Below, one piece after another: positions 2,141 through 32,000 of a stretch of DNA of 32,000 nt. Source of the DNA: Mucisphaera calidilacus (GTDB lineage Bacteria; Planctomycetota; Phycisphaerae; Phycisphaerales; Phycisphaeraceae); assembly GCF_007748075.1 (NCBI RefSeq), contig NZ_CP036280.1:360001-392000 (forward strand), given 5' to 3'. Each line of letters opens with the position of its first letter. Positions within the stretch are counted from its first letter, which is position 1. The notes beneath the pieces are model-generated. The model was not told the DNA's origin, did no database searches, and saw nothing but the letters and a program-made list of their open reading frames with translations. The position numbers and the translations under genes were made by a program.

Positions 2141-2168
2141 GCTGTCTGCTTTCGTGTTGTGGTGTTTC

Positions 2169-3008: not shown

Positions 3009-3128
3009 CAGAATTGCCTGAAATGCAAATATAGCCCAAAAGGCCAAGACACGGAACCCGTCGCGTCTATCATCGGTTCTGATGGTCCGGTGTTCATGGT
3101 GCTTTCTGGCCCTGTTGGTGGATCTGTT
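3009..3128. promoter_or_regulatory. Divergent promoter/operator region between the AraC-family regulator and the isomerase-like gene
   Basis: This 120-nt spacer lies between two divergently oriented starts. It is locally AT-richer (GAAATGCAAATATAGCCCAAAAGG). It also holds an imperfect direct repeat, GTTCTGATGGT ... GTTCATGGTG, at about 3076-3105. No binding site is proven. Confidence 0.4.
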
Positions 3129-4490: not shown

Positions 4491-4829
4491 GTCTGCGTTG
4501 ATTCGACGTCCTGGATCACATGAGGGCCGAGGTCTGTGCGTGGCCGATGGGCGGGGCGTTGCGGGCCCGCGTGTGCATCGGGTGTGTCCTAGCGGCCGGG
4601 CGGGAGCGTGGCAGGTTGGGTCTGGGCAAGCGGGGGCATCTGGGTTGTTATGTCGTGGTAGCGCTTTTATTTCCCTGATTCGGTGATCGTCCGGGGCTAG
4701 TTGGCTCTGAACGCCTTGGCGTCGTGTTTTTGTGTCTGAGGTCATCATTTTCTAACGAGTACGAAGCGGTGTGGGGCGTGGGTATGGCGTTGCCGGCGAT
4801 TGCGTTGGATAAAAACACCTAAAAATCGG

Positions 4830-4857
4830 TTGTTTCGCGCGTCGCTGCCTGTAAATT
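4830..4857 (+). promoter_or_regulatory. Candidate sigma70-like promoter (TTGTTT-N16-TAAATT) upstream of the giant gene
   Basis: TTGTTT at 4830-4835 and TAAATT at 4852-4857 are separated by 16 nt, inside the only AT-rich patch of the window (about 4650-4860). The site is ~290 nt upstream of ATG 5150. Planctomycete promoter rules are poorly defined, so this is tentative. Confidence 0.25.
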
Positions 4858-5149
4858 AGAGGTTTGGGACGGGTTGGCGAGAGGGAACTGGTCCGGGCCA
4901 GTGAGGGAGTCGCCATGTACGGTGATGAGACTGGTCTGGATCTGACTTGGAGAAGTGCATCTACTGGAAAAGGCATCCACCTGCATTGGGCGAGGGTTCG
5001 TCTGTCCGCATCGATCTGTGCGGGTGAGGGTGTCGGCTCGTGTCTGCTCACGGGTTGATGTAGGTGCAGCGCGTTGTTCCTAAGAGCCGCGTGGAGCGCG
5101 GTGTTTGGAGTCTGTCGTGATCAATTCATGGTGGCGTAGAAGGGGACGT

Positions 5150-8100
5150 ATGCGGCGGCGTGTGCTGCGGTCGCTGCGCAGGATGCTCGGTCTGAAGCGG
5201 AATCGGCCGTCGCTCGCGCAACGGGTTGAGCAGCTCCAGACCGGTGCGCGCCTGCGGCTGCGTTGTTTCCTTGATCGTGCCCTGCTCCGGCCGTTGGCGG
5301 GTCGTACGACGACTGCCAGTGCGCTCCTGGATCCGAAGTTTGAGAGTCTTGAGCCGCGGCTGCTCCTCTCGGCCGATGCCCCTGATTGGTCGCTGTTTGA
5401 TGAAGATCAGCACGGCGTCGCTGCGGAGTCACAGGTTTCGGAGCCGGGGACGGAAGATCTGCCCGCGTCGGCTCGGTCCTACAGCCTCCTGGCCGCTTCG
5501 GGGTCGGTGGGCGGCACGCTTTTCGCTCAGGGCAGCGGTGACGCGGATGGTGTCGCGGGGGTGTCGGTGGATGTGGAGGACCTCCGGGAGCGTATGGAGG
5601 CGTTGCGTGACGACTGGCTGGGATCGCTCGATCAGTCGGACGTGTTCAATGTCGAGGTTCCGTTCATCGATGCTTCGCTGGCTGATGTTGTTGATCTCGG
5701 CAAGGCGTTTGATGTCGCGGTGCTACAGAAGATCGCGTGGGGCGGTCTTGAGACGCTCGAGGATTTTGCGGACGAGTTGTCGCGTGCGGGCGCTTTGGCT
5801 GAGGGTCAGGCCGTCAGTTACGACCCCGCTTCGCAGCAGGTCACGATTCCGATCGACTTCGAGATCGCGTTGCACGAGGTTGACCTGCGTGACCTGAGCC
5901 GGCTGGGCCTGGTCGACATCGATCGCATGGTGGATGAGGGGCTGGTGCAACTCGGCGACTACGTCGATCCCGATGACCTGCTGGATCACGGTTACATCGA
6001 CGTGGCGGGGATGATCGGACTGGGCCTGATCAGCACGGGTGACGTCGCGGACTGGGGGGCTGTGGATCAGCAGGCCATCATTGACGCGGGGCTGATCGGT
6101 GTTGCTGGTCTCGCTCAGCACAATCTGGTCGATGGTTCGGATCAGGTTGATCTTGACGCGCTGCTGGACTCGGGTCTGGTCACGCTCGGCGATCTTGTTG
6201 AGAAGGAGTTGGTCACTTACGCCTCGATCACCGGTGGCCTGGGTTTTGTGCAGGAATTGAATCTCCTGGCCACCAACATCGCGGACTACGGGCTTGATCT
6301 CTCGTCGCAGCTGCAGAGCGTTGACCTGATCGACCTCTCGGCCGCCTTCGCCGCCGACGCCAACGCCTTCACGGATCTGATCGCGGCGGAGTTGATTGGC
6401 GTTGCTGACCTCGCCATCGATACGCTGGCTCTTGACGACCTGATTGCGGGTGGTGTCACGACGCTGCAGGAGCTGGTGGACGAGGGCATCCTGACGGCTG
6501 ACGACCTCAGCGACACCCTCCGTCTCGAGGTTGTGGAGCTTCTGGACCAGACCACGTTGACGCTGAGCGGGCTGATCGACGCGGGCGTCATCCGTATCGA
6601 GAGTTTCCGGTCGGACGCGTCGGTTACGGTGCTTGACCTCGTGGGCGACGGTGTGGCCACGCTGCGTCAGCTGGTCGACGCGGGCCTGATCACGCCTGAC
6701 GATTTCGGCCCGATCACGATCCCGGAGAGTGAACTGGTCAACAGCGGGTTGCTGACCCAGTTCCAGCTTGATTTCAACGCGTTGGTCACGGCGGGTCAGG
6801 TTGCCCTCTCGGACCTGGTCGAGGGTGACTTCGTTGACCTGCTCGATCTCATTGAGGAGGGGTTACTCGACGTCCATGACCTGGCTACCTCGAGCCTTGA
6901 TGCTCGTGCGTTGCTGGAGAGCGGCCTTGCCGACCTGCGCACGCTTGCGGACAACGCCTTGCTGCAGGCTGACGCGCTGTTGGATGGCGTGTGGGCCTCG
7001 GCGCATCAGTTGGCCGATGACGGCGTTTTGACGCTCTCGGAGTTGGTGTCGAGTGCGCTCGTTGACGCGGAGGACATGATCCGTGATGCGGTGGACATCC
7101 GTGCGCTGCTGGACGCGGGCGTGACGGACCTGCTGAGTCTTGCTCAGAACGATGTGCTGTTGCCCGCTCAGGTGGCGCTGGATGCCGTGCTCTCGTCGGA
7201 CGTTGCGACCGAGGCGACCGATCTGTTCAACCGCATCAGCACCGCGGGCGGGGTGATCGGGCCCGGATCGATCATTGATCTGGACGACCTGCTCCAGAAC
7301 TTCCCGGTGGGGCTGAGTGACCTGGTCTACTTCGGGCTGGTGACGCAGGACGTCCTGCCCGATCTCGGGTCTGTCGATCGCTCGGCGTTGCTTGCCACGA
7401 AGGCTATCGACGAGAGCGTGCTGCGGCGCAAGGGTGCCGAGGGTGCCGTGAACGAGGGGCTGCTCACGCTTGGGCAGCTCAGCGACCTCGGGGTCATCGA
7501 TCGGGCGAATCTCAAGGATCTGGCGCCGATCGAGATTGATGCCTTCGAACTGACGGCCCAGGCCGTCGCGCAGGCTGATGCGGACGGTTACATCATTCAC
7601 GGGAGTGGTGCCACGCTCGCCGGCCTGCTGGCCCGGCCGGACGTGACGCTTGAGCGTCTGCTTGATCTCGGCCTTGTCGCCACGACCGATCTCGGCGATC
7701 TGGGGACGATCCTGCTGAGCGATCTTTTTGTGCTGGGCACCCTGAGCCGGGCCGACATCCTGGCCAGCAACGTTCTCGACGCGGAACTGCTTGACGGCCT
7801 GATTGCTGTTGACGACACGGTCGCGATCGCCGACCTCACGACGGGCGGGCTCGCCTCGCTCGGTGACCTGGTGGACGCCGGCCTGCTGGGTCTCGCCGAT
7901 TTCAATCTGGTGCTTCCCTTCCACACGCTGACCGAGAACGATCTTCTGGCCTCCGGGCTGATCACGCCTGCGCGTCTTGAGGGCAGCGGGCTGCTGCTGA
8001 CCGGCGGCACGCCTGAGCAGCGTTTTGTTCGGACGCACGAGCTGATCACGCAGGGCTACGCGGAGCTCTCGGACCTACTGGATGCGGGGCTGATTGATGC

Positions 8101-11100
8101 CTCGCGGCTGCTGACTACGTCTCTCTACGTCACGCTGTTGCAGGACGCGGGTGTCCTTGCGATGAATGCTCTGGAGGCCCATGGTCTGGGGCAGAATGGC
8201 GACGTCGATGTTGAGGCGCTCGTTGCGACGGGGCTGGTGACGCTTGATCAACTCGTTGCCGTCGGCCTGATCGCGGAAGAGGATTTCTACGACGACAACC
8301 TCGTTCTCCTGCGCAACCTTGTGGATGCGGCGTTGGTGACCGCTGCGGATCTCGCCGCCGACCAGACTCTGGATCTTGACGATCTGCTCGACACGAACGT
8401 GGTCGGCCGGCAGTACGTCGACGACGCGGGTCTCGTGGATGAGGTCGCGGGGGTGTCCGATCGGATCCTGATCACGGACCTGCTGGGGGACCCGAATGTT
8501 ACGCTCGCCAGCCTGATCGAGTCGGGGGTGTTGTCGTACCGCGACTTCGCCAACATCGCGTTTGCTCAGGAGGTTCTGGAGGCCACGACGCTGGAGGGCA
8601 GCCCGCTCTTTGTGGAGGGGCAATTCGATGATCTCGTTCGTCTGGGCAGTGTGGCTCTAGGTGATCTGCTCGGCTCGATCCTGTTCGATAACAGCCTCGA
8701 CGCCTATGTAGACGCCGAGTTCCTCGATCGCTTCGATTTCAATGATGTCAGCCTTGACGCTGCGGCTCTCGAGGGTGCCTTTGCCGTTGATGTTCCGGAT
8801 GATCGTGGCCCGACGATCGCGCTCTACGACCTGCTGACGACGTTGCCGGCGGTCACGCTTCAGAGCCTGATTCAGAACGGGTTCCTCTCCGATGCGGATC
8901 TGGTCGATCCGGCCAAGCCGCTGGACATCGTTGACCTTGAGGCTTCGGACCTGTTTGAGACGGGCGACCTGCTGAACTTCGTCAGCCAGCGTTCGGTCTA
9001 CCTCCACGATGTTGCTGAGGACGTCAACCTCGCCACGCTCGCCGAGGCCGGCCTGCTGGTCGCGGGTGACCTGATCGTGAACCGGGCCGGCGAGCTCGCG
9101 GAGTTCGTAGACGAAGGACTCCTGGGCAAGCAGAGCTTCCGGGACGTCGCGATCCCGGTGGCCACGATCACGGACAACACGACGCTGAGCAGCACCGACC
9201 TCAACAATCAGGGGATCGTTGATGCGGGCACGGTGTCGCTGCATGACCTCATCGATGCGGAGATCATCGCGCTCGATCAGCTGATTACCGATGGCGTTGT
9301 CACGGTTGCCGATCTCGTAGCCGACGTGACCTCGCGTGACGTCGATGATGTTCTCGATGCCGACGCACTCGAGCGGGCGATTCTCGAGGACGCGGGTGTT
9401 CTGACGGGCGCGGAGAACGATCGGGTCCGTCTCAACGGCTCCAGCAGCCTCCTGAGCGAGAACCTGGCTACGCTGCTGGCGCTGACCACCCAGCGTGTGG
9501 TGAATCCCTCGCACTTCGACGCGGGTGCTTCGGTGGACAAGGATGACCTTGTCACGGCGGGCCTGCTGACCGAGGTTGATCTCATCGAGGCCGGTCTCGT
9601 TTCCGCCGCGGAATTGTCGGTGACGTCGATCGGGCTGAAGCAGCTCGATCAGACGGGTGCTCTGCCTCTCGACCGACTCACGAGCATCGACGACTACATC
9701 GATCTTGGTGTGGTGACCCAGCCGCAGGTTGATGGCGTCGACACACTCGACAAGGCCGACCTGATCGCTTCGGGGCTCGTCAACGAGACCGAACTCCTGC
9801 AGGCGGGGCTGCTGGGTGAGCAGATCGAGCTGAGCGACCTGTTGACATCGGGGCTGGTCACCACGGAGCAGTTGTTGCTCAACAGCGTTACGTACAGCGA
9901 CGGGTATGTGGCCACGCAGGATCTGGTCGACAGCGGGCTGACGTCGGTGGCGGCGTTGGAGGGAGCTTCCCTGACCGGCACGCAGATCGATGTCGCGGAC
10001 CTGATCAACTCGGGTCTTGTGACGCTGCTTGATCTTGTCGACAACGGTATCGACCTGGACGACCTGCTTGCGGCCTCTCTCTCCGGCGGGACGCCTACCG
10101 AGCAGCAGGTCATCGATGCGGGGCTCTTTGATCCCAGCGTCGATATCGCTGAGCTGGTCTCTTCGGGTCTGCTCTCGGTGCAGGACCTCATCGACGGCGG
10201 TGTGCTGCCCGCGACTATCGAGTCCGCGGTGCTCGTCGGCCTGAATCTTGTCACCGGCACGCAGCTCGTGGCCGCGAGCCTGATCACGCACGGTCAGCTC
10301 GACAGCCAGACGTTCCCGTCTGTCTCGCTGACGTCGCTGCTGGCCGCGCTTCGCGATGGCGGGGACGCGGGCTCGACGCTCATCAATCTCACCGATTTGC
10401 TCAAGGCGGGTTTCTTCACCGCTGATCAGCCTCGTGCGGACCTGATCTCCGCGGGCATTGCCTCGGACATCGCGATGACCGGCGCGGGTCTTGTCGGTGC
10501 ATCGGTTGACGTGCAGGATCTGGTTCAGGCCGGCCTTACCACCTTCGAGAGCCTCGACCTCGGAGGCTTCCTGACCACGGGCGTCGATTACCGCACCGTG
10601 GTGGGTGCTCCGTTCGCTGCGGCGACGGGCGTCACGATCATCGACGATGACCTTGTGGGCGCGGGCCTGCTGTGGAAGCGTGTCGATCCCGATGCGCTGG
10701 ATGCGCTGGGTCTGGCCACGCTGGCCGATCTCGCTTCGGCCGGGCTGATTGTGGATCCGCTGATCAGTCGGGCTGAGCTTGATGAGCTCGGGTCTGTCGA
10801 CGTGGACATCCTGCGGCTGCCGCCGGTTGATCTCGCTCGGCTACTTGCCACGGATCTCGTTGACGACCGGGGCGAGGTCGATCTCGACGCACTTCTGGAC
10901 ACGCCGGTTGCGGGCGGTGACGGTCTGGTTCTCGTCAACGTCGCCGACCTCGCGAGGCTGGGTCTCATCGACTGGACCGACGTCAACGGGCACGACGTCA
11001 ATTACTTCGGGCTGAGCAATCGCTCGCTTGATCTCGCCGGCGATTTCGGGCTGGAACTTGTCGGCATGACCACCGAGGCCACCGCTGACCTTCGGGCCAC

Positions 11101-26100: not shown

Positions 26101-29100
26101 GTTCGTCGCCCACAACGACTTCACCATCGAGCAGACCTCCACCAACGCCAACCTCCTCGGCCTGACCACGGTCCACGGCGGAGCCGACGTCAGCGCCACC
26201 CGCGCCGACTCCATCCACCAGCTCACCGCCGGCAACGCCCTCTGGTCCACCGGTGTCCTCGCCGAAGACGTCACCCTCAACCTCACCACCACCGACTCCG
26301 ACGACAACGTCGTCAACACCACCGTCACCATCGCCCGCTCCGCCACCGACGGGACCGACGGCAACACCCGGAACACCACCCACGACGACCTCGCCGACGA
26401 CGTCACCGACGCCCTCGCCGCCGCCGGGCTCGACATCACCGCCCGCGTCGATACCGGCAGCCTCGTCCTCGCCAGCGACACGCTCGACATCACCGTCCTC
26501 GGCACAAGCAGCTCCTCCGACCTCCTCGGCCTCGCCGACGCCTTCAACGGGATCGACGAAACATCCGTCCGCCCGCCCTCCGTCTACGAGCTCACCACCG
26601 AGACCACCGCCACCACCGGCGTCCTCGCCGACAACGTCACACTCGACCTCGTCATCGCCCTCGAAGACCCCAACCAGCAGACCATCCAGTCCCTCGAATC
26701 CAACGACGGCTGGGAGATCCTCACCGGCCAGATCGACCCCGACCTGCCCGAGATCGCCAGCCGCACCATCGACAACGTCGTCAGCGCCAGCGTCACCATC
26801 TTCCGCGACGACACGCTCACCAACGCCACGCTCGACGACATCGCCGACGACATCAACGAAGCCCTTATCCGCAGCGAGCTCCGCGACTTCACCGCCTCCG
26901 TCGAATCCGGACGCATCCTCATCAGCAGCGGCCGAGCCTTCGCCCTCCAGCTCACCTCCGAGAACGCCAACCTCCTCGGCCTCACCGCGATCGCCGACCC
27001 CGAAACCGAGGCCACCCGCGACGACCCGACCAACCGTGTCGAGCCGCGCGACACGATGATCAACGGACGCCTCGCCGAGGACATCACCCTCCGCTTCGCG
27101 CTCGACGACGGCCTCGGCGGCACCTGGAACGGCAACGTGATCATCGCCGCCGCCGACACCAACGGCATCACACCCGGCACCGCGGCCAACAACGGCGTCA
27201 GCGACCTCATCATCGACATCAACAAGGCTCTTGCTGACACCGCCATCCCCGGCCACCCGGGCAACCTCATGTTCGGCGATGTCGTCCAGGCCGTCGCCCT
27301 CGCCGGAGATGCCGCCGCCTCCGACGACACCCCGCCCGCACCGAGCATCATGTTCGTCAGCGACGCCGGCTTCACCATCGACAGCCAGGCCGCCGACGCC
27401 CTCAGCCAACTCGGATTCAACACCGGCACGCTCGGCTCCGCCGCTTCTACGCCCGGCTATGAGGTCACCGCCGAGAGCGTGCTGCCCGGTGGTCACCAGA
27501 CCGCTGGCGACGTCACCCTCACCCTGCTCATCGACGTCGGCCTCACCAGCACCGTCACCATCCCGCAGGCCGACACCCTCACCAACGCCAGCCTCGGCGA
27601 ACTCCTCGCCGATATCCGCGCCGCGCTCCAGCAGGGCGAGGTTCTCAACACCGGCGACAGCTCGCCCACAGGCTCCTACGCCAGCCAGTACATCCAAGCC
27701 ACCGCCCTCAACGGCACTCTGACTCTTGCGAGTGACGTTGCCTTCACCATCGACGCCAGCGCATCGACCAACGCTCAGCATCTGGGCCTCGACGCCGTCT
27801 CCCTCGGGACCGACGCCGTTGCTACTCAGCCGGCCCCGACCGAGAACCTCGTCGCCGACACCCCGCTGCCCGCCAGCTACGCCCTCACCGACGACGTCAC
27901 CCTCGAACTCCGCCTCAAGACCTCCGACACCACCGAGTCCAGCCACACCGTCACCATCACCGCCGCCGCGGCCAGCGACAACACCTCCGTCGACGACCTG
28001 ATCACCGACATCAACAACGCCCTCGTCGCCGCCGTCGGCGACACCTCCGTCCAGGTCAGCCTCGACGACGCCGGCAAGATCATCTTCACCGGCACCGAGG
28101 CCTTCCGCATCAACTACGCCTCCGAGAACGAGTCGCTCCTCGGCTTCGCACCGATGCCCAACGACGGCATCGTCGCCAACAAGTCCTCCGACACCGGCGA
28201 GCTCCCCGAAGACGTCACCTTCGTCGTCTGGGTCAACCTCGGCACACAGAAGATCGTCGGTGAGGTCACCGTGCCCGCCGAGATCACGCTCACCAACAAC
28301 AGCAACGAGGGCATCGGCGACCTCGTCGACGACATCCAGGACGCTCTCAACGGCGCCGTCACCTTCGATCCGGGCGACGGCCTCCGCAACGGACTCAGTG
28401 GCGGCAGCTACTACGACGCACAGACCGGCGACCCGTTCGACTTCGCCGACTTCGCCGACAACCCCGTTACCGTCGGTGGCGACGCCGACCCGATCATCAA
28501 GGTCAAGCTCCTCCGCGGAAAACTCCTCTTCACCAGCCAGTACGAGTTCGAGATCCTCCCCACCTGGAACACCGCTCCCTTCGACAGCGACCCGCTCGTC
28601 AGCAGCAACATCGAGCTCCTCGGACTCGACGCCGTCGCCGAGGGCCTCACCGCCGAGACCACACGTCCCTACAACCTCATTGCTACAGCGGCCGGCTCAC
28701 AGGTCGTCTTCGAGACCGAGTCCAACGCCGGCGAGCTCTACATCGCGGGTGGCGTCCGCTCCGACAGCCAGATCGTCATGCAGGGCGTCAACGGCGGCGA
28801 CTTCACCTCCTTCGACTTCGACTGGTCCGGCATCATGGAGACCACCAACGGTCCCATCATGCTCGACCTCGGAACCAACGGACACCTCCGCGGCGACCTG
28901 ATCGCCGGCGGCGCCAACGGCGACGTCATCATCACCGCCGACGACACTCTCGAGATCAGCGGCATCATCGTCGCCGAACGCAACATCGACATCGACGCCG
29001 GCTTTGTCGCAGCGGCCTCGGGCGACCCGGTCAGCGTCACCATCAACAAGACGGCATGGCTCCGCACCAACGGCGGCCCGCTCGATCCGCAGGCCATTAC

Positions 29101-32000
29101 CATCGACGGACGCAACAGCGTCCTCATCGACGGTCCGATCGGTGCCCTCCAGACCGACGACGCACGCACCACCGCCGATGTCGCCATCACCTCCGCCACC
29201 GCCGACGTCACCCTCACTGAGGAGTCCGGCTGGATCGAGACCGGCGGACGCATCGTCATCACCGGCGACACGCTCTACATCGATGGCGTCATCAAGAACG
29301 CCGGCGACGCCGACAGCTCCGTCCCCAACCCGGCCGACCCGAGCACCTATGAGGTCGTTCTCGACGCCGCCATCAACACCATCGTCACCGGCGACATCGA
29401 TGCCTTCGGCTCCGTCCTGATCGACAACCCCGTCGCCTTCGTCCTCCAGGGCTCCATCGCCGCCGGCGAGGTCGAGACCTTCGTCTTCCCGACCGAGGCA
29501 CGAGGCTTGCTCACGAATCCGGGTGAAGAAGTCCGTATCATCGCGCCGGGCATCACCATCGCCAGCCAGACCGCCACCGTCGACGAAGAACTCATCGACC
29601 TCGACGGTGACGAGACACCCGACCTCGCGCCGGGCGACACCTACCTCCTCGGCTCGCAGGTCTCCGCCAGCGGGGCGGTCGTCCTCAACGCTGGCATCGA
29701 CGACATCATCATCGAGTTTGCCTCCGAGCTTCTTGCCTGGGACGACGACGCACAGATTCACCTGGTCGCCGACGGGGTCTCGATTCTTGGTGCCCTCTAC
29801 GCCGGCGCGGCTCGTGAACGCAACACCGACAACCCCGACCTGCTCTGGAACGGCGAGAACGCGGGCGTCGACATCGACGCACAGGTCATGGTCGGCCTCG
29901 GCGGAGCCGGGACCGCCACCGACGCCGACGTCTTCCTCGGCAACGCCGCCGCCCAGGGCGACCCCCTCGACCGCGCCGGCAGCATCACCGCCACCGGGCC
30001 CGTCACCATCGACGTCGACGCGGCCAACGGCATCTTCGCACTCACCGAGACCAGCTTCATCCGTGGCGACGCCAACCTCGTCGCAGGGGCCAGCCCCGTT
30101 GCCATGAGCAGCCTCGACATCAACTCAGGCGACATCGCCGACATCGCGGGCGTCATCGACTTCGCCGACGACAACTCGACCGTCAGCATCGAGACCACCA
30201 ACGGCATCATCAACGTCTCGGGCAGCATTGATGCCGGCGACACCCTCACCCTCAACGGCAACACCTCAGGCAACGTCACCACGCCCGTCAGCGTGCAGAT
30301 CACCAAACTCGTCTACGAGACCGTCAAGCAGACATTCCCCACCGACGACGGTGGGAACGCTCAGTTCACCATCGACCAATCCGGCAACCCGATCGACGAC
30401 TTCGGCTTCCTCCTCAGCATCAACCTCGGCGGTCAGGTTGAGCTCGAACTCGATGGCGTCACACCCAAGCGGCAGCTTGACGCTGAGAACAACCCGATCC
30501 TCGGCGACGGCCCTGTCTACCTGACCATCGACGGCGACGACAACCCCGTCACCGTTGACAAGCAAGGGCGCAAGCTCGAACTCCAGGGCAACGGCGACTA
30601 CAACCTCGTCGACGAAGCCGGGCAACTCCTCGACGAGGCCGGTTTCGTCATCGACATCGACGGCGTGCGCCTCGACGCCAACGGCGACCGGATCAACGTC
30701 TTCGGCTACCGCGTCGATGCCAACGGCAACTACCTCAACAGCACCGGTCAGACCGTCAACCTCTACGGCCAGCGTGTCGACGCCAACGGCAACCTGCTTG
30801 AGAACGACGGTGCCGACAACTGGTCCGGCAACCTCGTCAACAGCGCCGGCTACCGCGTCAACAGCGACGGCCTCCTCCTCAACGCTTCCGACGGCCTGCT
30901 CAACGGCGTCGGAGCTATCCGTGGTGCTGTCGATATTGGCGGAACCGACTACCTCACCGACCCGTACGGCAACCTCATCGACGACAACGGCGAACTCCTC
31001 GACGAGGCCGGCTTCCTCATCAATGAACGCGGCCAGCGCATCAACACCGACGGCACGCCGCTCTCGCCCATCGACACGCCGGTGCTCGGCGGCAACCGAG
31101 TCGCCGTCGACCCGCTGACTCTCGAGGACCCTGTCGCCGGCAACGGCACCATCGACGGCGGCGCACCCGTCACCGGAGCAGCGCCCAAGGGCACCACCGG
31201 GCACGTCGTTGTCGACCTGCCCATCCGCCAGAGCGGTGGCGTTGTCAACACCTCCGCACCCGACAGCCAGATCATCATCACCGGCACGACGGATATCGAG
31301 ATCAGCGGCATGGTCGGCCGGGCCTACATGCAGGCCGAGGAAACCGCCGTCGACACCGGCAGCGTCAGCATCACCTCGACCACCGGCGAGGCTTACATCC
31401 GCACCGATGCGCTCGTCAACGCTCAGGACGACATCAGCATCACCGCCGAGAATGTCTGGGCCCTCGACGAGTCGGTCGTCATCACTCGTGCTGACCATAG
31501 CACCACCAGCCTGGTTGCTACCGGCTCCGGCGATGACGGCAAGATCTTCATCGCACGCAGCGAGATCTACTTCTTCCGCGCCCTCGTCTCCGCTGCAGGG
31601 CAGGTCCACCTCCAGGGTAAGGACATCAACGTCTGGGGCACCATCACGGTCACCGGCGACTACGCCGATCCCGCCGAGACCACGCGATCCGCCGCGCACC
31701 TCGAAGCCGACCGGCACATCCTCGTCCGTGGCGAGATCCTCAGCTCCGGCCACGCCGACCTCGACGCCGGCCTCGCTGATATCACCGGTGCCATCGTTGT
31801 CGCCGCCGAGGGCAAGATCGCCGCCGGCTTCGAGTCTGACATCCCGGCCGACATCACGCTCGATACGCCCGGCGAGGTTTCGATCCAGTCGTACGACGAC
31901 GAAGCCAACGACGACCTCCAGTTTGCGGCGCCCTTCGTCTCCTACGAGCCCACCTTCGTCGACGTCGTCACCGGCTTCCGCCGCGTCGAGGACGGCTTCA
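5150..32000 (+). CDS. Giant LEPR-XLL-type secreted/surface repeat protein, 3'-truncated by the window edge (at least 8,950 codons in the window)
   Basis: Frame 2 has a stop at 5081-5083 and then no in-frame stop up to nt 32000 in my manual end-to-end translation. No frame-2 ORF fragment appears in the track after 5150, which fits an unterminated ORF. ATG 5150 is preceded by AAGGGGA (5140-5146). The translation is coherent throughout, with LEPRLLLSA, GGxGxD repeats and several internally consistent repeat families. The start codon is less certain; the alternative is ATG 5183. Confidence 0.95.
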   Translation, partial: MRRRVLRSLRRMLGLKRNRPSLAQRVEQLQTGARLRLRCFLDRALLRPLAGRTTTASALLDPKFESLEPRLLLSADAPDWSLFDEDQHGVAAESQVSEPGTEDLPASARSYSLLAASGSVGGTLFAQGSGDADGVAGVSVDVEDLRERMEALRDDWLGSLDQSDVFNVEVPFIDASLADVVDLGKAFDVAVLQKIAWGGLETLEDFADELSRAGALAEGQAVSYDPASQQVTIPIDFEIALHEVDLRDLSRLGLVDIDRMVDEGLVQLGDYVDPDDLLDHGYIDVAGMIGLGLISTGDVADWGAVDQQAIIDAGLIGVAGLAQHNLVDGSDQVDLDALLDSGLVTLGDLVEKELVTYASITGGLGFVQELNLLATNIADYGLDLSSQLQSVDLIDLSAAFAADANAFTDLIAAELIGVADLAIDTLALDDLIAGGVTTLQELVDEGILTADDLSDTLRLEVVELLDQTTLTLSGLIDAGVIRIESFRSDASVTVLDLVGDGVATLRQLVDAGLITPDDFGPITIPESELVNSGLLTQFQLDFNALVTAGQVALSDLVEGDFVDLLDLIEEGLLDVHDLATSSLDARALLESGLADLRTLADNALLQADALLDGVWASAHQLADDGVLTLSELVSSALVDAEDMIRDAVDIRALLDAGVTDLLSLAQNDVLLPAQVALDAVLSSDVATEATDLFNRISTAGGVIGPGSIIDLDDLLQNFPVGLSDLVYFGLVTQDVLPDLGSVDRSALLATKAIDESVLRRKGAEGAVNEGLLTLGQLSDLGVIDRANLKDLAPIEIDAFELTAQAVAQADADGYIIHGSGATLAGLLARPDVTLERLLDLGLVATTDLGDLGTILLSDLFVLGTLSRADILASNVLDAELLDGLIAVDDTVAIADLTTGGLASLGDLVDAGLLGLADFNLVLPFHTLTENDLLASGLITPARLEGSGLLLTGGTPEQRFVRTHELITQGYAELSDLLDAGLIDASRLLTTSLYVTLLQDAGVLAMNALEAHGLGQNGDVDVEALVATGLVTLDQLVAVGLIAEEDFYDDNLVLLRNLVDAALVTAADLAADQTLDLDDLLDTNVVGRQYVDDAGLVDEVAGVSDRILITDLLGDPNVTLASLIESGVLSYRDFANIAFAQEVLEATTLEGSPLFVEGQFDDLVRLGSVALGDLLGSILFDNSLDAYVDAEFLDRFDFNDVSLDAAALEGAFAVDVPDDRGPTIALYDLLTTLPAVTLQSLIQNGFLSDADLVDPAKPLDIVDLEASDLFETGDLLNFVSQRSVYLHDVAEDVNLATLAEAGLLVAGDLIVNRAGELAEFVDEGLLGKQSFRDVAIPVATITDNTTLSSTDLNNQGIVDAGTVSLHDLIDAEIIALDQLITDGVVTVADLVADVTSRDVDDVLDADALERAILEDAGVLTGAENDRVRLNGSSSLLSENLATLLALTTQRVVNPSHFDAGASVDKDDLVTAGLLTEVDLIEAGLVSAAELSVTSIGLKQLDQTGALPLDRLTSIDDYIDLGVVTQPQVDGVDTLDKADLIASGLVNETELLQAGLLGEQIELSDLLTSGLVTTEQLLLNSVTYSDGYVATQDLVDSGLTSVAALEGASLTGTQIDVADLINSGLVTLLDLVDNGIDLDDLLAASLSGGTPTEQQVIDAGLFDPSVDIAELVSSGLLSVQDLIDGGVLPATIESAVLVGLNLVTGTQLVAASLITHGQLDSQTFPSVSLTSLLAALRDGGDAGSTLINLTDLLKAGFFTADQPRADLISAGIASDIAMTGAGLVGASVDVQDLVQAGLTTFESLDLGGFLTTGVDYRTVVGAPFAAATGVTIIDDDLVGAGLLWKRVDPDALDALGLATLADLASAGLIVDPLISRAELDELGSVDVDILRLPPVDLARLLATDLVDDRGEVDLDALLDTPVAGGDGLVLVNVADLARLGLIDWTDVNGHDVNYFGLSNRSLDLAGDFGLELVGMTTEATADLRATASAGFDLVIDLNGLDNASGIVWLLEDATATAQLAFNVIDLDVAARLGFIGVTLADVSGLESGVAVDLTRTITADLDGNDATTNDRLVELDLLLGASLDEHLVGSVSGSAAATLRGIKVNTGIGGIPVGHGASVILTVADLESAKGEGYYELALNDLPGIFRVHELLKIEDLMSMLIRTQDYVRKALDQLPFWATDPQSPLYELTKDVKIPVINKSPGELLELIGQLDDAVTEVQRFLYDPENDAQRLVAFVMDALGLDIEADSDKFSVYMEGNILRLRLNLIEDFSEDIPLDFDLSALAGAISGDTAEIAGIDSLVSTEGSGTIALKGFAEFQIDAGIDLGPRADGQAPDYFLYDYDAGLEQGTRVEAGFKVLGSGINLDFEIFDAIGVSSTGALILMDADNNLTTNPELSDPDDRSDFVRVVFALDQQSGTGVTDDGLYRFDETLLGDNVVVEVNGGFAILLPIEINIFGTVIDFPGEPLFIRTNPAYITTDGGVFESNDGLAEVFRHLFGTTDPTPGPHDPILVNAPDIAGALGNLANSKIRELLEQLAGLIEGLKQQLLDANLFDLAIPGTNQSIDDLFGAGNDNGLAGVDTATGVEAFLDIDTYVLEYLKTVTWVGAGSVADGTLTANDVFNGLATFLTNHWVPTLPGIGAAVGGGFITITSSGDQLSLDVNGNYTFNKDLLWDLDSQLGDTGLSLTGDLNFNAAFNALLDLDFGVNLATGATEFNFNEFTFDGSFDSTSLSPSLDYNGISTVSVNNGTVDLDLGGRVYTDGSGDFRFDPSMAGDGSSLENSIEIELPLELLSNPVGTIGFADTDFYDGQLDPGFTADLSGLTGILDNAAYIALDLLGESVDDLRGTLLTQYDQQGDPVPGTGSFLDENIAGTDTSIARVLGLDSLLNLGDYIRHYLRPQLPESGTFERDLTIPLGYLDGGSVDPRTNWYGDASGNNVPTIGGLLQYLEDNWLPTLGGGAGGFSWQLIGSDAVEIVFTANSPFTRTVGVDLGADAENLGLELEAEANFELDIQQDVMATLLFDWGADTTSFTLDHYDFSIDADVNDLFAGASFGPLDISVGQEAPDGLKGSASLDLAGRLSFNNAVELARTDLLFEAGDLAFRLTPELDPTNNLEIDLPLFASLAGVDLGSVEQGSIPRVGLAGSIFPNAAGADPLRFTSENLEELVDFSDFNIGTLIAMIQGTINWLEEISNADFLSTEIPFTDKTLGDVLDFATVFSDQVLSKIDFERIRTVQDFIDAFTRAGILPEDANVVYDPATQTLRLPSLFDFNLSDFGLRDLQRNGEVTFANLIDIGALDPETVLSKGTLLDNMLGLTLIQFREFVRWELVPEDAFDGTGITVADLESLGLIEAGALNGTGLVAAGQIAVEDLIGTDAVNVSLLDLIDADLLGSADLTLPLGDRRVPYIDLVESRLLNVNELTALGVTLYDRDGNTTSTPSDAETVDLQDLIDLARFSLTELLDMGFVGRSEFNDATTITVAALEAAELIAENALDGEPIVTAGEVTLGDLLAAESPVSVALADLIENGLVGRGDMTLGDITLGNLSIDGFDLHDFVDLGFLDQNTVSTFVYDRFGLEDVPLDLGLDLGGVLELSTTATADLVAEIEAGLDWVIDLDGLNGTEGLTILVENAHIAGRAWFDVNDLEMGAKLGFLGLTAGGAGSGSGIHLFAEASATLDADGNLDTTDDRTFELFDLFTGSLFDNLVLDFDGYAEAALNNFQVDGSIPGLNEAALAGQEISIAIPSIVNQTGTEVLKSGEKTPAEIQELKDLERIVIILPDFDDTFNFTDLDFASIITMIRQGVELLDQALTDVPFYRESIPVVNRSLEDVLDFINDLTQKLEEAANNPAAVLQDVEEVIEDALGIGDDALDLFLDGDALRIDLNWQPLAYEEMLPFAFDLGGMKDLSGDSNASELSGINSLVDANGAVSLYAGLEANLQFGVDFSEVDTGGLGALEFFFVDYDDNGTPGNTADDSGTRVAFEARLLADDLDLTINPFDIGVADGFAVLDGDGDPLTDDMAAFTLFLDQDGNAVPDDGRFVIGSESLGDNLDYAIVGGFAVELPLQVFGTTLGTPLGVATNPVYGTDGLKELFLHLTNDSGAGASDPIVLTYPDLTGALGGDFGLLGILNDPTYILDGVDLALGGVQEVVGSGFAQDLPLIGDELGEAATFIRDLRQGFLADLRAKLSGPGQAINFIREAMWDAFGPTGLDILLDQSGDGQLAIEDIEVAWYDVDGNKIKDWIVGEAVPESGFVYDSSGVFVGDGVAIPAGGFQVSDDTDAIQFDLDLGGTVFGTGVDIPLEIDLPGFGLDVDGGFGVAMDWSYDFGMGLSLNDGFYLATNDKANDEDPELEVEIGAFLDGKPLDNTVVTPFYAEGTLLFFKVTATDTDRDEAKPGFQPSGVFGFLELDAIGDDTTGRLTLNHFLSSPIEDVFELDMGIEAALNLELGLELDGVEGLPRLVADLVLTWDWTLQEGASEPDIGLYDLGLEVGSFVSEVLKPITENISDVLSPFEPVVDVLLEPIPGLDAFIEDPNLLGLINFVASLTGNPEIPPQFFYAVDSMLDIVAQVNALLGTDGRILLGDITGLGTTSVESTQAESSIPAGLQSFLDQIRLDGAGGTPANSGFSSGGSSTERSGFEIVEYLTDIGNWASLITGGDAILFTYELPYLEWGMSFSQQIAQIPLGPIQIVVSAVGSFEVFADLGFGYDTYGIRKAIETGNAWQAFDGFFVADYALSGPNKGQEKDEFGFSAEIGLEAALWLLLVEAGIGGVIGFEAGLDLQDVVDDGRIRASELATMWTYTGNGAPGGLANLVNLSARAFFEAYAFVDVGISIPFVGKIMSRVVDWTIADVTIFELEYNAPKVEPILATISGDQLILNTGKRAGDREYLDFTDGGERFTVTGDSSSITVKYDEWEQTYDGSFTTLIADGGAGDDVFNASGLMGVNVEFDGGVGNDALTSGSGTATMTGGAGDDRLIATNATGVVYLEGGDGNDTLSGGSGVNTLIGNSGDDRLTGGDQADVIDGGTGVDTLNGGAGIETYIFGDGFGEDRFQDTSDASILDFSALSDDMDVRITESLVQIATDSEELRISRPNISTIILGSGNDNIRLSELAEGTLMLEDTGGANTYTLEMQAQTNNKGDAIVQIIDSDDQHDELILNNLVGINPDDVGDDVIYINNMEIESGRQFVRFDNSLELITMNVVDSSIDDTATTTDFASDLTIDSNHGGGAIIGQSGLYVNARNLTVLSSLDGRDFVFDVETDFVLEGNVHATGEFDVAANTVGTLSTLGEVAYNIDANDMDWHIRVSDVNVTGNLNAINNGRIAITADSTDTGAGEEANITLHNDVTSGSGDNADQLGGGELEFIASGDITLENQPAFLGAGSHLILAADNIFNDDAPDNRIVTTVGGITVLTRDEGAVSGSEIIIRETDDLVVYGLDIADNGALNPVGLSSAHGEIDVRLAAVDARLTLDSGSIVTRDPGLDITLTADDFDFLPAPDARSDEPDRAIGGIIGTGDLIIRATNASRFVMGTAAEAPEGNDWTDIAADFPDFTNYPGHVGGNFTGEGLEATYDEDGSLFTDTVHLSTRDLSAIADGFSLITIGEDVGDTNPTYEMIFGDAMDAQVVKDTGLDRVRDSSFRDDVILNAERIFIEGEVEAIAPLGQSAILFDVNTDRLHIKSKNINNPLGGTDSGITGDLLNLLGVRNRMIVDGWVRTDGDIMVNIQGDGEDYASPMMSDVAYLDPKRLNNFIQGVAGTLETNADGGVIEIITKNSVVLEGRSFVNGTGSRITITPGTFFELVQIAGSIQAPDAEALVEISAPEAVYINGEILAGAAYDGGVKRLTGVGADVVIDTPHELRIFGAITSSDVLELTAGTDQDYNQRDPEDASIHLTGQLTFLGDNSLLRLEGPDDILIEGSIFGRGDNSGLLIDSQQRVKFATSFVEVEDGIDIYGRGQTVDLETGELSSVYIAPTAVITSFDAGSDINITGANDVDVLGTVVAGGSIGLTGVTWSGPDSHATVTAGEQVVIDSGILASDTVTIIGGAASADDVSLDPDNAGLPVNDQRRVSVIVTTAGGITAAGRTSDNTPGEINIYGQSGVEMMGHLYAGANRSLLFDTQGNLIREEIDWSGSVGGNVNIESPAEVFIGGFAENLNNQVQLGANVNLQIDTTGNGVSNGSVGVNAAVTASNQSLSQLRDDVATPLASAFGSDVEVIVRDNKLVFTSADPFTILSSSSNKDLLGLGGGNLVASEIIAIAGTTADAAPAGFDFSAGSDVVLRFNDGNGDALGEVTIAAADTAGLTTLSELADLVRQTVRDVEDLRDINVTTESGSIRFTSFYDFQIDQSSVNADTLGFTTVAAATVASTRDASTYEVTAANALFGDVVVTGGYIAASTEVNLRNIDTAEHPYAGGDTGVWIEASSEISTNDDFSTVNIDAKNDALIEGHIIAGGEFETIRDAQTGAFIGTRLIDFGLDAANTEIRIEAEKQVRIGTVLRAGGLIEVIGGDPGEDDPDDLFDFGSSSVLVFGSAELETWGENSTILLKGAKDISVLTPTHFHQVEPDTWAKGPVATIVADGEVRNFGVLASDVVLEMRRGKGLSAVTETITVSAVDAGTDLALFNHVQAAFDSSTEFQDVFVNRIGRHIIFEAPYDFEILPESTNLDLLGLETARSSIVFYQPAEIAGTDDLATTGRLVSDVTLDLELEDGLGGTITGTVDILASATTANSTVADLIADINNALDASAFGAINVIARDNRLVFQTDDLDFSITSSSTNVNQLGLRGVWDTVELREEATLTGSDSLPTTGVLPRDLVLVIRIDATDVDDTLLGAIILTPADTAGNTTQQDLVDDLNAKLAATDIPRYETQLTFADYLTATLDNGHVVITGTEAFRLRTASQNETLLGYDAPVDLPATEIFYDAILTADTTPPSPVLSSPVTLELVIDRFGVISNETLTVTPDATNATTQDLVDDINTELVLLGINDLEARDNAGTIEFVAHNDFTIEQTSTNANLLGLTTVHGGADVSATRADSIHQLTAGNALWSTGVLAEDVTLNLTTTDSDDNVVNTTVTIARSATDGTDGNTRNTTHDDLADDVTDALAAAGLDITARVDTGSLVLASDTLDITVLGTSSSSDLLGLADAFNGIDETSVRPPSVYELTTETTATTGVLADNVTLDLVIALEDPNQQTIQSLESNDGWEILTGQIDPDLPEIASRTIDNVVSASVTIFRDDTLTNATLDDIADDINEALIRSELRDFTASVESGRILISSGRAFALQLTSENANLLGLTAIADPETEATRDDPTNRVEPRDTMINGRLAEDITLRFALDDGLGGTWNGNVIIAAADTNGITPGTAANNGVSDLIIDINKALADTAIPGHPGNLMFGDVVQAVALAGDAAASDDTPPAPSIMFVSDAGFTIDSQAADALSQLGFNTGTLGSAASTPGYEVTAESVLPGGHQTAGDVTLTLLIDVGLTSTVTIPQADTLTNASLGELLADIRAALQQGEVLNTGDSSPTGSYASQYIQATALNGTLTLASDVAFTIDASASTNAQHLGLDAVSLGTDAVATQPAPTENLVADTPLPASYALTDDVTLELRLKTSDTTESSHTVTITAAAASDNTSVDDLITDINNALVAAVGDTSVQVSLDDAGKIIFTGTEAFRINYASENESLLGFAPMPNDGIVANKSSDTGELPEDVTFVVWVNLGTQKIVGEVTVPAEITLTNNSNEGIGDLVDDIQDALNGAVTFDPGDGLRNGLSGGSYYDAQTGDPFDFADFADNPVTVGGDADPIIKVKLLRGKLLFTSQYEFEILPTWNTAPFDSDPLVSSNIELLGLDAVAEGLTAETTRPYNLIATAAGSQVVFETESNAGELYIAGGVRSDSQIVMQGVNGGDFTSFDFDWSGIMETTNGPIMLDLGTNGHLRGDLIAGGANGDVIITADDTLEISGIIVAERNIDIDAGFVAAASGDPVSVTINKTAWLRTNGGPLDPQAITIDGRNSVLIDGPIGALQTDDARTTADVAITSATADVTLTEESGWIETGGRIVITGDTLYIDGVIKNAGDADSSVPNPADPSTYEVVLDAAINTIVTGDIDAFGSVLIDNPVAFVLQGSIAAGEVETFVFPTEARGLLTNPGEEVRIIAPGITIASQTATVDEELIDLDGDETPDLAPGDTYLLGSQVSASGAVVLNAGIDDIIIEFASELLAWDDDAQIHLVADGVSILGALYAGAARERNTDNPDLLWNGENAGVDIDAQVMVGLGGAGTATDADVFLGNAAAQGDPLDRAGSITATGPVTIDVDAANGIFALTETSFIRGDANLVAGASPVAMSSLDINSGDIADIAGVIDFADDNSTVSIETTNGIINVSGSIDAGDTLTLNGNTSGNVTTPVSVQITKLVYETVKQTFPTDDGGNAQFTIDQSGNPIDDFGFLLSINLGGQVELELDGVTPKRQLDAENNPILGDGPVYLTIDGDDNPVTVDKQGRKLELQGNGDYNLVDEAGQLLDEAGFVIDIDGVRLDANGDRINVFGYRVDANGNYLNSTGQTVNLYGQRVDANGNLLENDGADNWSGNLVNSAGYRVNSDGLLLNASDGLLNGVGAIRGAVDIGGTDYLTDPYGNLIDDNGELLDEAGFLINERGQRINTDGTPLSPIDTPVLGGNRVAVDPLTLEDPVAGNGTIDGGAPVTGAAPKGTTGHVVVDLPIRQSGGVVNTSAPDSQIIITGTTDIEISGMVGRAYMQAEETAVDTGSVSITSTTGEAYIRTDALVNAQDDISITAENVWALDESVVITRADHSTTSLVATGSGDDGKIFIARSEIYFFRALVSAAGQVHLQGKDINVWGTITVTGDYADPAETTRSAAHLEADRHILVRGEILSSGHADLDAGLADITGAIVVAAEGKIAAGFESDIPADITLDTPGEVSIQSYDDEANDDLQFAAPFVSYEPTFVDVVTGFRRVEDGF
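5348..5374 (+). other. LEPRxLL ('LEPR-XLL') N-terminal motif
   Basis: Residues 67-75 read LEPRLLLSA, preceded by an Arg-rich leader (MRRRVLRSLRRMLGLKRNRPS...). This motif is characteristic of large planctomycete secreted proteins. Confidence 0.8.
5654..5879 (+). repeat. Junction element copy 1 (precedes repeat array 1)
   Basis: EVPFIDASLADVVDLGKAFDVAVLQKI..LEDFADELSRAGALAEGQAVSYDPASQQVTIPIDFEI aligns by eye with copy 2 at 14741-14956. Confidence 0.7.
5880..10985 (+). repeat. Array 1 of degenerate short 'DL(V/I)D(A)G(L/V)(I/V)Txx(D)L' repeats (~1,700 aa)
   Basis: Examples are LRQLVDAGLITPDDF, LSGLIDAGVIRIESF, LQELVDEGILTADDL, LSDLLDAGLIDASRL, LGDLVDAGLLGLADF and VQDLIDGGVLPATIE. The array starts at DLSRLGLVDID and ends at DLARLGLIDWTD. 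Cores are spaced 11 aa apart when adjacent and usually ~20-25 aa apart. Confidence 0.85.
11020..12715 (+). repeat. Module A conserved core (paralogous to 15860-17505)
   Basis: LELVGMTTEATADLRATASAGFDLVIDLNGLDNASGIVWLLEDA...VIDLDVAARLGFIGVTL, IPVINKSPGELLELIGQL, NGGFAILLPIEINIFGT...FIRTNPAY and DPILVNAPDIAGALG align in the same order with module A'. Confidence 0.75.
14741..14956 (+). repeat. Junction element copy 2 (precedes repeat array 2)
   Basis: EIPFTDKTLGDVLDFATVFSDQVLSKI..VQDFIDAFTRAGILPEDANVVYDPATQTLRLPSLFDF aligns with copy 1. Confidence 0.7.
14957..15840 (+). repeat. Array 2 of the same 'DxGL' short repeats (~295 aa)
   Basis: Examples are ADLESLGLIEAGAL, VEDLIGTDAV, LLDLIDADLLGSADL, LQDLIDLARFSLTELLDMGFV, LADLIENGLVGRGDM and HDFVDLGFLDQNTV. 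Confidence 0.75.
15860..17505 (+). repeat. Module A' conserved core (paralogous to 11020-12715)
   Basis: VLELSTTATADLVAEIEAGLDWVIDLDGLNGTEGLTILVENA...VNDLEMGAKLGFLGLTA, IPVVNRSLEDVLDFINDL, VGGFAVELPLQVFGT...VATNPVY and DPIVLTYPDLTGALG. Confidence 0.75.
19910..20260 (+). repeat. RTX / hemolysin-type calcium-binding nonapeptide repeats (GGxGxD)
   Basis: The run reads GGAGDDVFN..GGVGNDALT SGSGTATMT GGAGDDRLI..GGDGNDTLS GGSGVNTLI GNSGDDRLT GGDQADVID GGTGVDTLN GGAGIETYIFGDGFG. It is followed by the usual ...ILDFSALSDD tail. Confidence 0.9.
20770..23640 (+). other. Beta-helix-like tract I (irregular ~20-25 aa turns rich in G/N/D-I-T-L/V)
   Basis: Recurrent strings include GRIAITADS, ANITLHNDVTSG, GDITLENQ, GGITVLTRD, SEIIIRETD, LDITLTADD, GDLIIRATN, SDINITGAN and GEINIYGQSG. 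These are typical of parallel beta-helix adhesin or passenger regions. I assigned no family. Confidence 0.45.
23665..28627 (+). repeat. About 12 tandem copies of an unrecognised ~110-160 aa domain ending in S-x-N-x-x-LLG(L/F/Y)
   Basis: The (L/T/Q/H)LG(L/F/Y) anchors start at nt 23843, 24179, 25115, 25454, 25823, 26153, 26522, 26972, 27407, 27779, 28136 and 28616. Each unit also carries ..G.L..DVTL.L.., then ..VTI.AADT..N(T/A)(T/S)..DL(V/I)DDIN.AL.., then ..G.L.F....F.I. A beta-helix-like insert splits the array at ~24240-24850. Confidence 0.8.
28650..30300 (+). other. Beta-helix-like tract II
   Basis: Recurrent strings include GDVIITADDTLEISGIIVAERNIDIDAG, AITIDGRNSVLIDG, ADVAITSATADVTLTE, GRIVITGDTLYIDG, GPVTIDVDAANG and STVSIETTNGIINVSGSIDAGDTLTLNG. 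Confidence 0.45.
30335..31075 (+). repeat. Short YD-like beta-hairpin repeats ((Y/F)-x-V-D-x-x-G-x-L)
   Basis: The run reads LVDEAGQLLDEAGFVIDIDGVRLDANGDRINVFGYRVDANGNYLNSTGQTVNLYGQRVDANGNLLEN...YRVNSDGLLLNASDGLL...LTDPYGNLIDDNGELLDEAGFLINERGQRINTDGTPL. It only loosely resembles the YD/RHS or cell-wall-binding repeat logic. Confidence 0.4.
31230..32000 (+). other. Beta-helix-like tract III, running off the window
   Basis: Recurrent strings include SQIIITGTTDIEISG, GSVSITSTTGEAYIRTD, DDISITAENVWALD, GKIFIARSEIYF, GQVHLQGKDINVWGTITVTGD and RHILVRGEILSSG. Confidence 0.4.

Follow-up and report, generated by a model that had tools for sequence, protein, structure and literature searches.

A giant open reading frame in Mucisphaera calidilacus, almost certainly Pan265_03220: module map, orthologues and a codon-usage gradient

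An open frame of 8,972 codons and its identity

Is a reading frame that opens near nt 5084 of a 32,000-nt stretch of DNA from Mucisphaera calidilacus, a marine member of the Phycisphaerae (Planctomycetota), and is still open where that stretch ends, one real gene, and what would a product of this size do? The whole stretch (contig NZ_CP036280.1, positions 360,001 to 392,000 of the forward strand; ‘the window’ below) was translated in six frames. Frame 2 of the + strand contained no stop over nt 5084-31999 (8,972 codons) and was preceded by a TAA at 5081-5083, with 8,950 codons from the first ATG (nt 5150) to the window end. Over the same window, stops in the remaining two + frames numbered 298 and 218, which excludes a chance origin of the giant open reading frame (ORF). 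GC content by codon position was 0.67 / 0.42 / 0.84, a strong coding signal. The giant ORF is a real gene that extends past the window, and its product is probably extracellular.

An open frame of at least 8,950 codons from nt 5150, with an upstream stop at 5081-5083, had been proposed in the original prediction, and computational translation of frame 2 reproduced both points. The observation that the accompanying ORF track reports closed ORFs only was also correct, the largest entry being an antisense shadow at 15683-20938 (1,751 aa). DNA repeats in the window were at most 100 nt long at 60-80% identity; none was long and near-identical, which makes it unlikely that the assembly was collapsed or wrongly joined here.

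Some 3 kb ahead of the giant gene lies a DegT gene whose product was 100% identical to a Mucisphaera calidilacus protein, and window GC was 63.7%. The closed isolate genome of strain Pan265T measures 3.49 Mb (CP036280.1) with 63.9% G+C, and its species description reports exactly one giant gene, locus tag Pan265_03220, with a product of 13,493 aa (PMC8882080). From the neighbouring gene and the genome's single giant gene, the window ORF is almost certainly Pan265_03220, of which the window would cover ~66% (the first 8,950 of 13,493 codons). At ~40.5 kb the gene occupies ~1.2% of the genome. The original prediction had also claimed novelty: this stands for the sequence, most of which could not be assigned to a family, but not for the gene itself, which is already known, being annotated as Pan265_03220 and mentioned in the species description (PMC8882080).

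Amino acid numbers are counted from nt 5084 unless stated otherwise; feature coordinates are collected in Table 1. The start codon is inferred to be ATG 5150, and it opens an arginine-rich leader that holds the sole cysteine in 8,950 residues. The visible part of the protein is extremely acidic, with 1,484 D+E against 375 K+R. Behind the leader, the predicted motif LEPRLLLSA was recovered at aa 89-97 of the open frame (nt ~5348-5374), 67 residues past the first ATG, and the NCBIfam profile NF012209 matched above its cut-off (26.7 bits against 17, E = 2.9e-06; residues 63-77 counted from ATG 5150). Both marks of LEPR-XLL proteins were thus found: a sufficient profile score, and a motif placed close to the N-terminus in a protein that is very large and repetitive. 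Known proteins of this class place the motif after a basic leader and combine extreme length with repeats, as Pan265_03220 does; several homologues have the same layout (basic leader, then LEPRxLLS), and one, P0036, is named LEPR-XLL domain-containing protein by NCBI. NF012209 is defined by a ~24-residue motif alone and is uninformative on the other 13,400 residues. We are highly confident that the window ORF is Pan265_03220 and belongs to the LEPR-XLL class of giant proteins.

By the definition of Reva and Tümmler (2008; a single ORF >5 kb) the gene is giant, both as seen in the window (26.9 kb open) and as annotated (40.5 kb). In the 2016 survey of Kohn et al. all 29 planctomycete genomes held genes >5 kb and 15 of the 29 held genes >20 kb, the largest being 36,239 bp (PMC5177795), so that Pan265_03220 is longer than the maximum of that survey. 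Placing the gene in the size class of the largest bacterial genes, as originally proposed, was roughly right, but proteins of >30,000 aa exist in Omnitrophota; proteins of >=10,000 aa are reported to be frequent in the PVC (Planctomycetes, Verrucomicrobia, Chlamydiae) phyla, Planctomycetota included (bioRxiv 10.1101/2023.11.21.568195). The giant genes of Planctomycetota (>20 kb, predicted surface or adhesion proteins) share their atypical, strand-skewed composition with Pan265_03220. Distinctive here are its standing as the sole giant gene of an unusually small 3.49-Mb genome and the near absence of detectable InterPro-type domains.

Table 1. Features of the giant ORF and of the region upstream of it (nt, window coordinates; aa, counted from nt 5084)
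Feature	nt	Strand	aa	Basis or remark
Giant ORF, leaves window at 3' end	5084-31999	+		No stops, GC3 0.84
Probable start ATG 5150 and arginine-rich leader	5150-5335	+		AGGGGA 4 nt upstream of ATG
LEPR-XLL motif (…ESLEPRLLLSADAP…)	5336-5380	+		NCBIfam NF012209 ‘LEPR-8K’
Repeat family A, ~1,700 aa of degenerate short repeats	5861-10933	+	about 260-1950	Self-BLAST, motif map
Module M copy 1, ~590 aa	10934-12718	+	1951-2545	Self-BLAST duplicate
Module N, two tandem ~300-aa copies	12731-14533	+	2550-3150	Self-BLAST
Reprise: shorter second copy of post-leader segment and family-A repeats	14534-15793	+	3151-3570	Self-BLAST
Module M copy 2	15794-17503	+	3571-4140	Self-BLAST duplicate
Conserved central domain, ~800 aa	17504-19903	+	4141-4940	Homologues, AlphaFold2 model
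RTX nonapeptide Ca2+-binding beta-roll	19916-20356	+	~4945-5091	HemolysinCabind, PDB matches
Conserved core, ~1,050 aa	20381-23533	+	5100-6150	Orthologue alignment
Module B array, 12 copies of ~110-aa alpha/beta module	23543-28633	+	6154-7850	Profile (HMM) map
Beta-rich segment	28634-30283	+		48-50% identical to orthologues
Short-period repeat G-Y-x-V/I-D-x-x-G-N-L…, DUF3659-like	30341-31123	+	8420-8680	21-nt period (Tandem Repeats Finder)
Beta-rich segment leaving window	31181-31999	+		Aligns to homologue P0122 and orthologue L004
ORF, 244 aa	37-771
DegT-family aminotransferase	744/768-2021
AraC-family regulator	2169-3008/3047	minus
Isomerase-like ORF	about 3096-4490
Intergenic region ahead of giant gene, ~660 nt	4491-5149

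Module architecture and orthologous loci

Pfam and NCBIfam were searched with 1,000-aa slices of the visible protein, the Pfam search was repeated on thirty 300-aa slices, and sequence and profile searches were run against PDB. More than 95% of the visible protein had no Pfam, NCBIfam or PDB match, and HemolysinCabind alone scored above cut-off in the thirty short slices. The assignments that hold are the LEPR-XLL motif, one internal RTX block and a borderline DUF3659-like repeat, with a SHOCT-like signal below threshold. These scans agree with the original prediction, in which no described domain family was recognised outside the RTX and LEPR regions and a scan of slices of about this length was proposed as the check; they likewise left most of the length without a family. 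Its description of a coherent protein with several repeat families was matched by the self-BLAST, hidden Markov model (HMM) and motif maps, and its GGxGxD repeats proved to be a true RTX block. Nonribosomal peptide synthetase (NRPS) and polyketide synthase (PKS) megasynthases form the other main class of giant genes; no condensation, adenylation, ketosynthase or acyltransferase domains were found in the Pfam and NCBIfam scans of the visible protein.

The RTX block is the best-supported internal assignment. It consists of GGxGxDxUx nonapeptides predicted to form a beta-roll, and it scored 44 bits with HemolysinCabind (cut-off 23, E = 2e-11). In PDB it matched the RTX structures of CyaA, lipase and serralysin, with an E value of 7.9e-55 for the alignment profile against the CyaA structure. 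Its AlphaFold2 (AF2) model had a predicted local distance difference test score (pLDDT) of ~90, and Tandem Repeats Finder gave a 27-nt period. It is the single RTX block in 8,950 aa and lies internally, ~37% along the full-length protein.

Directly behind it lies the most conserved stretch of the family. Identity to orthologues was 57-66% in this core, with a mean column identity of 72%, against 35-50% elsewhere in the protein. The sequence pattern is beta-rich; no Pfam match (a relaxed scan included) and no PDB profile match were found. We regard this stretch as a candidate for a new domain; it may also be the functional centre of the protein.

Ahead of the RTX block, the central domain shared 37-62% identity with homologues P0001-P0013. 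An AF2 model built with the 13 homologues (mean pLDDT 75.9) showed helices, then long beta-hairpins, then the confident RTX beta-roll, and in Foldseek the RTX part alone was supported. An outer-membrane barrel or gasdermin pore fold was considered for this domain and rejected (TM-score <0.12, root mean square deviation 20-40 Å). The domain also contains an EF-hand-like loop, DVVDDGRIRASE, at nt about 19470-19510 (aa ~4800-4812). Its profile match, to secretagogin, was weak (E = 0.08) and was the domain's sole PDB sequence match outside RTX; judged by its sequence, the loop may be an extra Ca2+ site.

Several repeated units lie N-terminal to the central domain. Family A is a run of degenerate repeats with an ~11-residue core, xLxDLVDAGLITxxDL, at irregular spacing, and is probably helical. 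SHOCT (PF09851, cut-off 27) reached 29.5 bits there when summed per 1,000-aa slice with no single domain passing, and 24.9 and 19.4 bits in 300-aa slices. The two module M copies were 34-41% identical to each other, and their profile had no PDB match. In module N, self-BLAST aligned aa 2551-2751 with aa 2879-3096. Within the reprise, self-BLAST matched aa 3151-3400 to aa 177-390 (35-40% identity) and aa 3300-3600 to family A.

Behind the conserved core, the module B copies follow the pattern …DVTLxL…TVTIxAADTxxNTTxxDLVDDINxAL…GxIxFTS…FxI…SxNxxLLGL. A ~200-aa insertion (nt ~24197-24817) breaks the array, and orthologues carry 10-16 copies. The AF2 model of the module was confident (pLDDT 92.7). 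Closest to it were outer domains of flagellin and FliD, namely of V. cholerae FlaA and FlaB, P. aeruginosa FliC and E. coli FliD D2-D3. The best Foldseek match was 9n8g_C (query TM-score 0.59, E = 0.026, probability 1.00), the other flagellin/FliD matches gave TM-scores of 0.39-0.56 (E = 0.1-0.5), and phage tail-sheath or structural proteins reached ~0.55. The stretch …DLVDDINxAL… recalls the Flagellin_IN motif; module B lacks the D0/D1 polymerisation helices of flagellin. Assignment to Flagellin_IN (PF07196) itself was rejected, as one of the 12 units matched in Pfam at E = 0.42 and the PDB profile search gave no support. The module B profile found nothing in a collection of 5.8 billion proteins. 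Further towards the 3' end, the beta-rich segment at 28634-30283 had no family match. The short-period repeat gave slice-dependent DUF3659 scores of 26.1, 24.5 and 18.6 bits (PF12396, cut-off 24.8), which is borderline; homologue P0164 scored 33.9 bits with the same family.

Searches with the central region (aa 4140-6100) found partial proteins in metagenome-assembled genomes (MAGs) of Planctomycetota (Rubripirellula, Pirellulaceae, Planctomycetia), at up to 55-61% identity. The two protein collections searched returned no homologue longer than ~3,400 aa, and in an exhaustive search of representatives with the last 1,123 aa all 127 matches were fragments of at most 2,969 aa; giants of full length thus seem to be out of reach in these collections. 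The last 600 aa, used as a single query against genome and metagenome contigs, found no relative. One apparent extension past the window end, P0157, was discarded because it is a 1,191-aa protein of its own with a different context.

Longer collinear loci were recovered from contigs. L001, a 140-kb long-read metagenome contig, was collinear with aa 747-8745 and had been called as genes of 3,569, 881, 1,650, 1,722 and 6,357 aa, split by frameshifts and a stop at L001 7400-20200. L002, a further metagenome contig, was collinear from about aa 2714; it was called as 2,190 and 10,255 aa, with a frameshift site at L002 6973-7001 as the break, and was ended by the contig end. A genome scan with a four-sequence alignment profile added L004 to L007. 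L004 (Planctomycetaceae MAG, 282-kb contig) aligned over aa 4505-8972 in one alignment at 55% identity; in L004 and in the orthologous L005 (Planctomycetaceae MAG) a single frame was open across 23.3 kb. L006 (a MAG labelled Desulfobacterales) and L007 (Phycisphaerae MAG) were orthologous fragments. Frames that stay intact across genomes at about 50% amino acid identity argue for purifying selection on a real product.

These loci also show what may follow the window, since the frames of L004 and L005 run on, without a stop, for 3,333 codons or more beyond the window-equivalent end. At L004 15440-16042 a C-type lectin domain without the usual cysteines was found (Lectin_C, 24.2 bits against 22.6), in a short slice alone and not in the 1,666-aa slices. 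A ~1,000-aa Q/E/L-rich, coiled-coil-like stretch lies at L004 about 18700-21700, and beta-rich segments also occur in the 3,333-residue extension. The last called piece of L001 has FG-GAP, cadherin-like and Big_9 matches on record; these, like Lectin_C, are adhesion or carbohydrate-binding modules. No RTX match was found in the 3,333-aa extensions of L004 and L005.

Predicted function and rival explanations

With moderate confidence, the product of Pan265_03220 is read as an extracellular protein that would be secreted, stabilised by Ca2+ and active as a fibre, an adhesin or part of the matrix. Its extracellular character is indicated by the NF012209 match, the RTX block, the single cysteine, the acidity, the lectin, FG-GAP, cadherin-like and Big_9 domains of orthologues, and the likeness of module B to surface-exposed outer domains of flagellin and tail-sheath proteins. 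Planctomycete giant genes are mostly predicted to encode surface proteins (PMC5177795), and strain Pan265T grows as a viscous colloid in a dense extracellular matrix, with ‘polar matrix or fibre’ in its description (PMC8882080). Under this proposal the leader and LEPR-XLL motif would act as an export or sorting signal for the giant protein, Ca2+ binding would fold and stiffen it outside the cell, and a very long cell-surface or matrix fibre would form, with distal modules that attach to carbohydrate or to other surfaces. Such a fibre could contribute to the dense matrix of the colloid growth.

Several observations weigh against an extracellular fibre. The link between the gene and the matrix phenotype is a correlation only. 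No classical signal peptide is visible in the protein, and the genes in the 5 kb upstream include no secretion-system genes, whether for type I secretion (T1SS; ATP-binding cassette (ABC), membrane fusion protein (MFP) or TolC-like components) or otherwise. For LEPR-XLL, a literature search returned passing mentions only and no experimental function. The fold matches of module B were marginal (Foldseek E = 0.01-0.5), and the central domain had no credible fold match. With >95% of the protein outside known families, the conserved core may also have an enzymatic or toxic activity.

A more specific version of surface export would make the protein an RTX adhesin like LapA, MpIBP or SiiE that leaves the cell by type I secretion, C-terminus first through an ABC/MFP/TolC system, with an N-terminal retention module as its anchor in the outer membrane. 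Those adhesins are acidic, nearly cysteine-free, modular fibres of megadalton size with an RTX beta-roll. Pan265_03220 shares all of these properties, and its RTX block strongly resembles the CyaA, lipase and serralysin structures. It differs from them, however, in that the single RTX block seen in 8,950 of the 13,493 aa is short and internal, the N-terminus carries LEPR-XLL instead of a LapA-type retention module, the Pfam scans of the visible protein gave no tandem bacterial immunoglobulin-like (BIg) repeats, and the upstream genes lack a T1SS as noted above. This route is unlikely.

A role in motility or envelope architecture was considered from the example of SwmB of Synechococcus WH8102, a giant repetitive surface protein (~1.1 MDa) with atypical oligonucleotide usage that is needed for non-flagellar swimming (as cited in PMC2528017). 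Pan265T is motile (PMC8882080), and module B recalls the outer domains of flagellin. That likeness is marginal, however, and does not extend from the decorative outer domains to the D0/D1 core that polymerises. SwmB and Pan265_03220 are both of the giant repetitive surface type (the latter by prediction), but phylum and phenotype differ, and the parallel is drawn from the description of SwmB. We regard a motility function as improbable.

We also regard it as improbable that the protein is an effector acting as an enzyme or toxin, for instance by degrading cell walls or by contact-dependent killing, as has been proposed for the giants of Omnitrophota, with its repeats as a delivery stalk. The 1,050-aa core is far better conserved than its surroundings, which could fit a domain for catalysis or interaction, and giant genes have been linked to predation (bioRxiv 10.1101/2023.11.21.568195); against this, no catalytic family matched in 8,950 aa (Pfam, NCBIfam), and Pan265T is described as free-living and heterotrophic (PMC8882080). 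The possibility of a gene remnant without function, or of an error in annotation or assembly, to which the frameshifts of L001 and L002 might point, is effectively refuted by the 8,972 stop-free codons with their strong codon-position signal, by the intact ORFs of L004 and L005, and by a closed isolate genome with no near-identical DNA repeats, the L001 frameshifts being plausibly sequencing errors of a long-read metagenome assembly.

Neighbouring genes and codon usage along the gene

The upstream region holds four ORFs and the intergenic stretch listed in Table 1, of which the latter matched neither a sigma-70-like promoter nor any Rfam family. The AraC-family regulator is divergently oriented, 2.1 kb upstream of the giant gene. 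The 244-aa ORF ends in …VPEPGAASLVAICLGTLWCRRKGGCS, which resembles a PEP-CTERM sorting tail; the Pfam score for PEP-CTERM was 15.1 bits, below the cut-off of 20.7, and NCBIfam gave no match. Over window positions 1-5000 the + strand had G>C and T>A irrespective of gene orientation, and the minus-strand AraC gene, read in its own frame, was a mirror image of this bias. The pattern points to the + strand as the leading one, in which case the giant gene would be read in the direction of replication.

Within the giant ORF, window GC skew flips from +0.18 to -0.37, and off-frame stops per 1,500 codons fall from 60/75 to 7/20 in the two other frames. Both changes arise because synonymous codon usage shifts along the gene. 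In 5- to 6-kb blocks from the 5' to the 3' end, third-position C rose from 0.36 to 0.75 as G fell from 0.41 to 0.14 and T from 0.20 to 0.06. For leucine, CTG fell from 0.49 to 0.10 and CTC rose from 0.29 to 0.85; for threonine, ACG fell from 0.70 to 0.10 and ACC rose from 0.25 to 0.81. In 1.5-kb windows, C at four-fold sites rose from 0.27 to a peak of 0.83 and then stood at 0.74. G at four-fold sites dropped from 0.49 to 0.09. The correlation of four-fold-site C with position was strong (Spearman 0.94, P = 4e-14), and all eight four-fold families shifted (P from 1.6e-5 to 8.7e-39). Codon usage at the 5' end resembled that of neighbouring genes.

A weaker rise of four-fold-site C was seen in L001 (0.34 to 0.63). 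In L004 and L005, which are covered from mid-gene onward, it was flat and then fell in the tail, and the gradient may be a mid-gene hump instead of a monotonic ramp. A replication terminus as the cause of the skew flip was set aside, since the change is gradual, a skew down to -0.37 far exceeds replication skews, and L001 carries a weaker version. Horizontal transfer from a higher-GC donor was a poor fit, as third-position G falls while C rises.

Giant genes are known for atypical, strand-skewed oligonucleotide usage (PMC2528017). No description of a smooth intragenic codon gradient was found, and the term ‘codon’ is absent from the giant-gene preprint (bioRxiv 10.1101/2023.11.21.568195). Position-dependent selection against ribosome drop-off offers an existing theoretical frame (PMC13271495). 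It is conceivable, though doubtful, that the 5' to 3' synonymous drift is adaptive and caused by the extreme length of the gene. By one route, selection against drop-off or processivity errors would strengthen with the sunk cost of translation along 13,493 codons; by another, selection would favour a C-rich, G-poor, unstructured and Rho-sensitive mRNA, so that transcription is aborted upon translation failure. The history of particular domains is a further candidate cause.

As a giant surface-protein gene, Pan265_03220 is ordinary for its phylum, since Planctomycetota are well known for such genes. The present analysis adds description only, in the form of the module map, the conserved core and a model of module B. 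In structural terms, about 95% of this conserved 13.5-kaa protein is ‘dark matter’, within which the strongly conserved 1,050-aa core and the well-folding 110-aa module B, seen in this family only, are candidate new domain families. Genes of this kind are systematically hidden or fragmented in standard resources, as closed-ORF tracks skip them and metagenome gene calls split the orthologues into 2-5 genes. If either route to the codon drift is true, giant bacterial genes would offer a natural setting in which to test the long-debated model of position-dependent selection on codons, and the gradient, if general, would bear on how cells handle the translation cost of extremely long messages. With a sole giant gene in a small genome of a cultured, matrix-forming strain, a test of genotype against phenotype is unusually tractable in Mucisphaera calidilacus.

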